A DNA stretch of 18,295 nt from a virus (lineage: Duplodnaviria; Heunggongvirae; Uroviricota; Caudoviricetes), in IMG/VR virus record IMGVR_UViG_2737471838_000005. One strand, given 5' to 3'. Position 1 is the stretch's first letter; every line of letters starts with the position of its first letter. The position numbers and the translations under genes are program-made. Positions 8,491-8,580 of this stretch are shown one piece after another. The notes under the pieces were generated by a model, which made no database searches, had not been told where the DNA came from, and was given only the letters and a program-made list of their open reading frames with translations.

Positions 8491-8580
8491 ATGAATAACC
8501 CCGTCTGTCTTGATGACTGGTTGATTGGCTTTAAAATCTTATGCTGTACTTTGGCCGTAATAGCTCTGCTAATAATATAA
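8491..8580 (+). CDS. Candidate small hydrophobic peptide, 29 aa
   Basis: Hand-translated [29 protein letters not shown] with GGAGAG 5 nt upstream of the ATG. Below track cut-off. Unverified. Confidence 0.3.

Follow-up and report, generated by a model that had tools for sequence, protein, structure and literature searches.

The hydrophobic 29-codon reading frame downstream of cspF in a Qin-type prophage is the known small protein gene ynfS

A short reading frame lies downstream of the cold shock gene cspF in the stretch of DNA analysed here (18,295 nucleotides of the Caudoviricetes record IMGVR_UViG_2737471838_000005, hereafter the window) and raises the question of whether it represents a new gene and whether its small hydrophobic product belongs to a type I toxin-antitoxin system. 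A sequence-only reading of the window had reported this ORF as unannotated. Over its whole length the window matches the chromosome of E. coli ZYB62 with 100% identity, where it corresponds to a Qin-type cryptic lambdoid prophage and where a RefSeq CDS, WP_122985911.1 ("hypothetical protein"), occupies exactly positions 8491-8580. The homologous ORF of K-12 MG1655 is ynfS (b4750, 1642122-1642211; UniProt YNFS_ECOLI), which is found in Qin at the same locus with the same flanks (cspF upstream and ydfT/quuQ downstream), the same length and the same Shine-Dalgarno. The two products share 28 of 29 residues, the difference being Ile16 here and Ser16 in K-12, while the DNA is 99.7% identical over 8437-8760 and the Shine-Dalgarno and start region are the same in both. 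The peptide also matches the Pfam family PF23697 "YnfS" with 75.1 bits (cut-off 27), its residues 1-29 aligning with profile positions 1-29, and other alleles score in the same family (80.9 bits for K-12 and 70.1 bits for the 2H10 type); searches of the peptide against NCBIfam, PHROGs and PADLOC returned no match. With a RefSeq CDS at the same coordinates, a gene name in K-12, a UniProt entry and a Pfam family, the label "unannotated" is therefore wrong, and the 29-codon ORF is the known prophage gene ynfS, a member of the YnfS family that is already named, annotated and experimentally detected. Taken as a whole, the locus is best explained, with high confidence, as the known ynfS of a Qin-type prophage, probably carried on a cspF-ynfS transcript and encoding a putative tail-anchored membrane peptide, and not as a type I toxin-antitoxin system.

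The prophage of ZYB62 contains, in order, tfaQ, tail and terminase remnants, ynfO, ydfO, gnsB, ynfN, ynfR, ynfQ and cspI, followed by a lysis cassette (rzpQ, rrrQ, ydfR, essD), ynfU, cspB, cspF and the CDS at 8491-8580, and then by ydfT (Q antiterminator), ydfU, rem, hokD, relEB, ydfV, flxA, dicB, ydfD, an exonuclease gene, xis and int. According to the annotation, ynfS follows cspF and converges with the Q antiterminator gene, within a Qin-type prophage context, in K-12, S51, ZYB62, EC28 and phage 2H10. Within the stretch compared, flxA of K-12 Qin is followed by at least ydfW, ydfX, dicC and dicA; in the window (13107-13715), a 90-nt pseudogene fragment comes after flxA within about 600 bp, and then dicB and ydfD, and the Rfam search found no DicF in the window. 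In this interval the immunity and DicA repressor region appears to have been deleted and the division inhibitor dicB kept. The same search detected, above threshold, an IS009 RNA inside tfaQ (35-233, minus strand, 219 bits).

The ynfS ORF extends from 8491 to 8580 on the plus strand, with an ATG at 8491-8493, 29 sense codons and a TAA at 8578-8580 that is directly followed by a second TAA; the mechanical ORF list contains no in-frame start upstream of this ATG. The start codon is preceded by the Shine-Dalgarno GGAGAG (8480-8485, plus strand) and a 5-nt spacer, TTTTT (8486-8490). Sequence and ORF list thus confirm the arrangement GGAGAG-5 nt-ATG that had been described ahead of a hydrophobic ORF of 29 codons. 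The ribosome binding site had been called strong: with its canonical 4-nt GGAG core located 7 nt from the ATG it is a good one but is not exceptional. Of the ten ATG ORFs of 20-50 codons in the window that have a core Shine-Dalgarno 5-10 nt upstream, ynfS is the sole one with a membrane-like hydrophobic stretch. Across 127 ynfS copies the Shine-Dalgarno is invariant (127/127), and only the base preceding the ATG varies (T or C). A further ORF of 21 codons (8433-8498, plus strand), whose ATG overlaps the cspF stop codon (ATGA) and whose TAA ends 5 nt past the ynfS ATG, bridges cspF and ynfS in a third frame. It lacks a Shine-Dalgarno, and its 10 variant codons are without exception nonsynonymous; this ORF is unlikely to be a gene, but could permit coupling of the two neighbours by termination and reinitiation.

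Start-site profiling and epitope tagging, which the sequence-only reading had proposed as checks, both have a published outcome in K-12. In the work of VanOrsdel (2018), 80 short ORFs were given a chromosomal SPA tag and ynfS (cspF/ydfT, 29 aa) was among the 36 proteins detected by immunoblot; the authors also note that it was positive, and not identified before, in a screen by tetracycline ribosome profiling (PMC6001520). In that of Weaver (2019), strong retapamulin and Onc112 peaks were found at the ynfS start codon in K-12, so that the K-12 counterpart of position 8491 is occupied by ribosomes, and the level of SPA-tagged YnfS was below that of YnaM (10.1101/511675). According to this published work on K-12, translation in ordinary growth starts from the exposed GGAG Shine-Dalgarno of ynfS itself. 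YnfS has been counted among the uncharacterised Qin genes (PMC11551758), and the literature search returned no report of a function, a localisation or a phenotype. Other short ORFs of the same tagging screen, namely YnfR, YnfQ/YmcF (beside cspI and cspG) and YnaM, resemble YnfS in that they adjoin csp genes in cryptic prophages and that several are hydrophobic (PMC6001520), but they have no sequence relationship with it. Cold induction was shown for YnfR, whereas none has been reported for YnfS.

Upstream of ynfS, cspF occupies 8224-8436 on the plus strand (RefSeq; PHROG 729, cold shock protein) and is presumed to be the first gene of a cspF-ynfS transcript. Because the two genes are on the same strand, are 54 nt apart (8437-8490) and have no terminator between them in a scan of 7900-8900, they are most likely co-transcribed as a two-gene cassette that would end at about 8755; the consensus scan did not find a cspF promoter, so that we infer co-transcription from the absence of a terminator only. 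The 3' untranslated region of ynfS (8581-8728, plus strand) is the most divergent stretch of the locus. No cspA thermoregulator leader was found by Rfam upstream of cspF, in contrast to cspB and cspI, upstream of which such leaders score above threshold (7663-8086, minus strand, 159 bits, and 4800-5185, minus strand, 113 bits, respectively). At 8224, the start codon annotated for cspF reads CTG in the window and TTG in K-12; an AAGGAG (8213-8218) sits 5 nt upstream of this CTG and 17 nt from the ATG that comes next (8236). As judged from this start codon and from the placement of the Shine-Dalgarno and of the next ATG, translation of CspF from the window allele may be inefficient or may begin elsewhere. 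An imperfect inverted repeat of 25 nt, with 72% complementarity, was also noticed between ynfS coding sequence (8511-8535) and the 5' arm of the downstream terminator (8719-8743); folding of the entire region gave no significant structure.

The interval downstream of ynfS had been described as part of a 300-bp region without annotated function, a description that does not stand, as this region holds a bidirectional terminator and, on the minus strand, a late promoter resembling that of lambda. The terminator is an intrinsic hairpin, AAAACCCGCT-CATC-AGCGGGTTTT (8729-8752), with U-runs available on both strands, and is the sole terminator-like site in 7900-8900. The promoter, detected by the promoter scan at 8780-8827 (minus strand) downstream of the Q gene, has a -35 box TTTGCA, an 18-nt spacer and a -10 box TAAAAT (8827-8798, minus strand) followed by TCAACGATGGG, an 11-nt identity with the lambda sequence downstream of Q in the Q-S interval. 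In lambda, this element is the initial transcribed region of pR', which carries the sigma-70 pause signal. The Q gene itself, ydfT, lies at 8858-9610 (minus strand; PHROG 127, E 3e-105) with its stop at 8858. A lambda-like pR' located 3' of Q and followed by a hairpin makes this hairpin the equivalent of tR', and ynfS therefore lies between cspF and the late terminator, as had been supposed. Since the hairpin is only about 40-65 nt downstream of the late promoter, a very short pR'-tR' RNA is predicted.

In this arrangement, the hairpin would end both the cspF-ynfS transcript on the plus strand and the short late-promoter RNA on the minus strand. The cassette would stand opposite in strand to the late operon, flanked by the late terminator on one side and by cspB and the lysis genes on the other, and a Q-modified transcript reading through the hairpin would be antisense to ynfS and then to cspF before reaching cspB and the lysis genes. 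Because such a transcript would be fully antisense to both genes, expression of the cassette and late transcription should be mutually antagonistic. The so-called moron cassettes in the Q-to-S interval of lambda are similar in that an accessory, prophage-expressed cassette with its own terminator is found between the late promoter and terminator and the lysis genes; they differ in that cspF-ynfS lies on the strand opposite to late transcription and has one bidirectional hairpin in common with tR'. In phage HannyBb (PP925841.1), the cspF-ynfS stretch is 99.7% identical and the Q gene is about 1.8 kb farther off than in the window, which suggests an insertion between the hairpin and the Q gene; the annotation deposited with this record lists one tiny ORF after another, on the wrong strand.

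The product of ynfS begins with MNNPVCLDD, a polar head of acidic character; the stretch from W10 to the C-terminus is hydrophobic, with Lys15 inside the predicted helix and no residues past it. For the window allele, the summed Hessa insertion free energy amounts to -2.45 kcal/mol over residues 11-29 and to -2.15 kcal/mol over residues 10-29, in agreement with the single transmembrane helix predicted earlier for this hydrophobic peptide. Values for other alleles range from -1.0 to +0.2 kcal/mol, so that the predicted helix is marginal there, and Ile16, in place of the Ser16 of K-12, gives the hydrophobic stretch of the window allele the more favourable insertion energy. The common replacements (N2D, N3K, S16I, A22T, V23L and I29M) keep the pattern of polar head and hydrophobic tail, A22T, V23L and I29M being conservative changes of one hydrophobic residue for another. 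YnfS is thus predicted, and is most likely, to be a tail-anchored single-helix inner-membrane peptide. By analogy with other small membrane proteins of E. coli, such a peptide, if functional, would contact a larger membrane protein.

The 324-bp stretch 8437-8760 was matched in 1630 of 5426 complete E. coli genomes, in 1406 of which at least 80% of it is covered, and the matches fall into two main sequence types that are at least 99% and about 91% identical. It also occurs in the sequenced phages 2H10 (Glaedevirus), HannyBb, PhiR42_1 and PhiR63_1; the ynfS cassette is therefore not confined to dead prophages. When a degenerate back-translated pattern was searched in one genome per species, only E. 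coli and Shigella flexneri were found, together with at least 120 viral contigs, and cluster look-ups added a few Salmonella records with YnfS. In about 220 of the genomes with a match, less than 80% of the stretch is covered, and several of those sampled show the same partial match, limited to the terminator-proximal part. In the one such genome inspected, that of E. coli strain B2 (NZ_CP082327.1, 1299-1577), a natural deletion has removed the 3' end of cspF and ynfS so that a truncated cspF is joined directly to the terminator region. The sequence-only reading had made its case depend on conservation of the frame in related strains; the 29-codon ATG frame is intact in 124 of the 127 ynfS copies, with K15stop in two and ATG changed to ATA in one.

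Whether this conservation reflects selection on the peptide was addressed in 40 distinct haplotypes that were aligned and whose variable codons were classified, two having been left out because their downstream sequence is not colinear. The variable codons of cspF comprise 18 synonymous, 9 nonsynonymous and 1 nonsense for an expected synonymous fraction of 0.25, and third codon positions account for 19 of 30 changes; the synonymous excess (p = 1e-5) indicates clear purifying selection. Those of ynfS comprise 1 synonymous, 8 nonsynonymous (of which the start loss is one) and 1 nonsense for an expected fraction of 0.22, with no third-position excess and counts that fit the neutral expectation (binomial p 0.70). 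The two genes differ in their substitution classes (Fisher p 0.008). Between lineages, nucleotide divergence amounts to 3-5.5% in ynfS, 2-5% in cspF, 5.5-9% in the cspF-ynfS spacer and 7-18% in the 3' untranslated region, while the terminator hairpin has 0% divergence in nearly all colinear haplotypes, three having 1-2 mismatches. The ynfS frame is maintained, and the region does not evolve fast. The locus is a recombination mosaic, as illustrated by one haplotype with 20 differences in cspF and only 2 in ynfS. There is no sign of amino-acid-level purifying selection on ynfS in data that reveal it for cspF, and because counts are small and the locus is a mosaic this result is to be taken as a caution rather than a verdict.

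These data bear on the alternative that YnfS is translated yet functionless, a young ORF that arose from a chance Shine-Dalgarno and ATG in the 3' region of the cspF transcript and that amounts to a proto-gene or to translational noise, its identity as ynfS being unaffected. Besides the lack of synonymous excess and of third-position bias, such an origin is consistent with a divergence that is not below that of cspF and is similar to that of the non-coding spacer, with a distribution limited to Escherichia and Shigella with sporadic Salmonella, all in one prophage context, with losses in some strains by nonsense mutation, start loss or deletion, and with a level of tagged YnfS lower than the initiation peaks suggest (10.1101/511675). 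In K-12, moreover, no ynfS-like ORF is found downstream of cspH, the paralogue of cspF, the similarity ending at the csp stop codon. Against it, frame, Shine-Dalgarno and length are kept in 124 of 127 copies and in both main lineages, including phage 2H10, every common replacement preserves the polar head and the hydrophobic tail, divergence is 3-4 times lower in ynfS than in the 3' untranslated region that directly follows, and the counts are too few to exclude moderate constraint. We regard a functionless YnfS as a possibility to be taken seriously, if the less probable one.

Far more speculative is a proposal drawn from the layout of the locus, in which YnfS would be a functional membrane-active peptide whose production is shut down when Q-dependent late transcription, coming from the opposite direction, runs through the common hairpin, so that the cassette and the lytic programme would together form an antisense switch. 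If this long shot were true, YnfS would act on the membrane, on lysis timing or on superinfection, and a function would be gained for a y-ome gene.

Least probable of all is that YnfS is a type I toxin, a membrane-damaging peptide curbed by an antisense RNA, a reading that we consider hardly tenable. The likeness that had been proposed holds at a generic level, since YnfS, like HokD/RelF, Ldr, TisB and Ibs, is short, hydrophobic and prophage-borne, as these toxins often are, but it does not extend to sequence or profile. At E <= 10, the only profile match is Pfam YnfS, with no Hok, Ldr, TisB, Ibs, ShoB, Zor or other toxin model and none in NCBIfam or PADLOC, and BLASTP gave no alignment with the HokD of the same window (11488-11643). 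A structured leader or a sequestered Shine-Dalgarno was not found either, as folds are no more stable than those of shuffled sequences (z -1.3 for 8430-8760 and z +0.62 for 8455-8530), and no Rfam family was detected over ynfS at the gathering threshold. Sub-threshold Rfam matches, including isrK (16.6 bits), Phe/Leu/Trp/Thr leaders, the OrzO-P antitoxin (18.1 bits for a cut-off of 60) and P9, were rejected as generic hairpin matches because all of them sit on the terminator hairpin.

A promoter for an antisense RNA, which had been suggested as something to look for on the minus strand, would have its only candidate at 8601-8572, a weak site with 9 of 12 consensus matches that drops to 8 of 12 in the 2H10 lineage (as read from our alignment) and after which the terminator scan found no minus-strand terminator. 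Promoter-like sites in the region are not above chance, 4 being found versus 2.7 +/- 1.8 in shuffled sequences with a consensus scan that can miss real promoters. What else speaks for a toxin is that a Q-dependent late transcript would be antisense to ynfS and, circumstantially, that the ynfS transcript decreases upon fluoride stress, clustering with ldrB and ldrC (PMC10100675). On the other side, ynfS stands 54 nt behind another gene and does not form a tightly controlled unit of its own, no dedicated antisense RNA was found in the scans, and the peptide, unlike type I toxins, is translated constitutively and is detectable in growing and stationary cells without harm (PMC6001520; 10.1101/511675); no report of toxic ynfS overexpression was found in the literature search. 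With these negative checks and with constitutive, harmless translation in K-12, the type I toxin-antitoxin identity is unsupported and was rejected.

The 29-codon frame is thus retained as the known ynfS, and as a discovery it matters little, the gene being named, present in Pfam and UniProt and annotated in RefSeq, and the proposed profiling and tagging having been published in 2018-2019. What it offers is of modest value and of two kinds. A translated small ORF without detectable amino-acid-level selection, next to a constrained cspF, is a caution against equating ribosome occupancy with function. The cassette, lying antisense to the late operon and sharing a bidirectional terminator with a lambda-like pR', presents a concrete and testable regulatory geometry.
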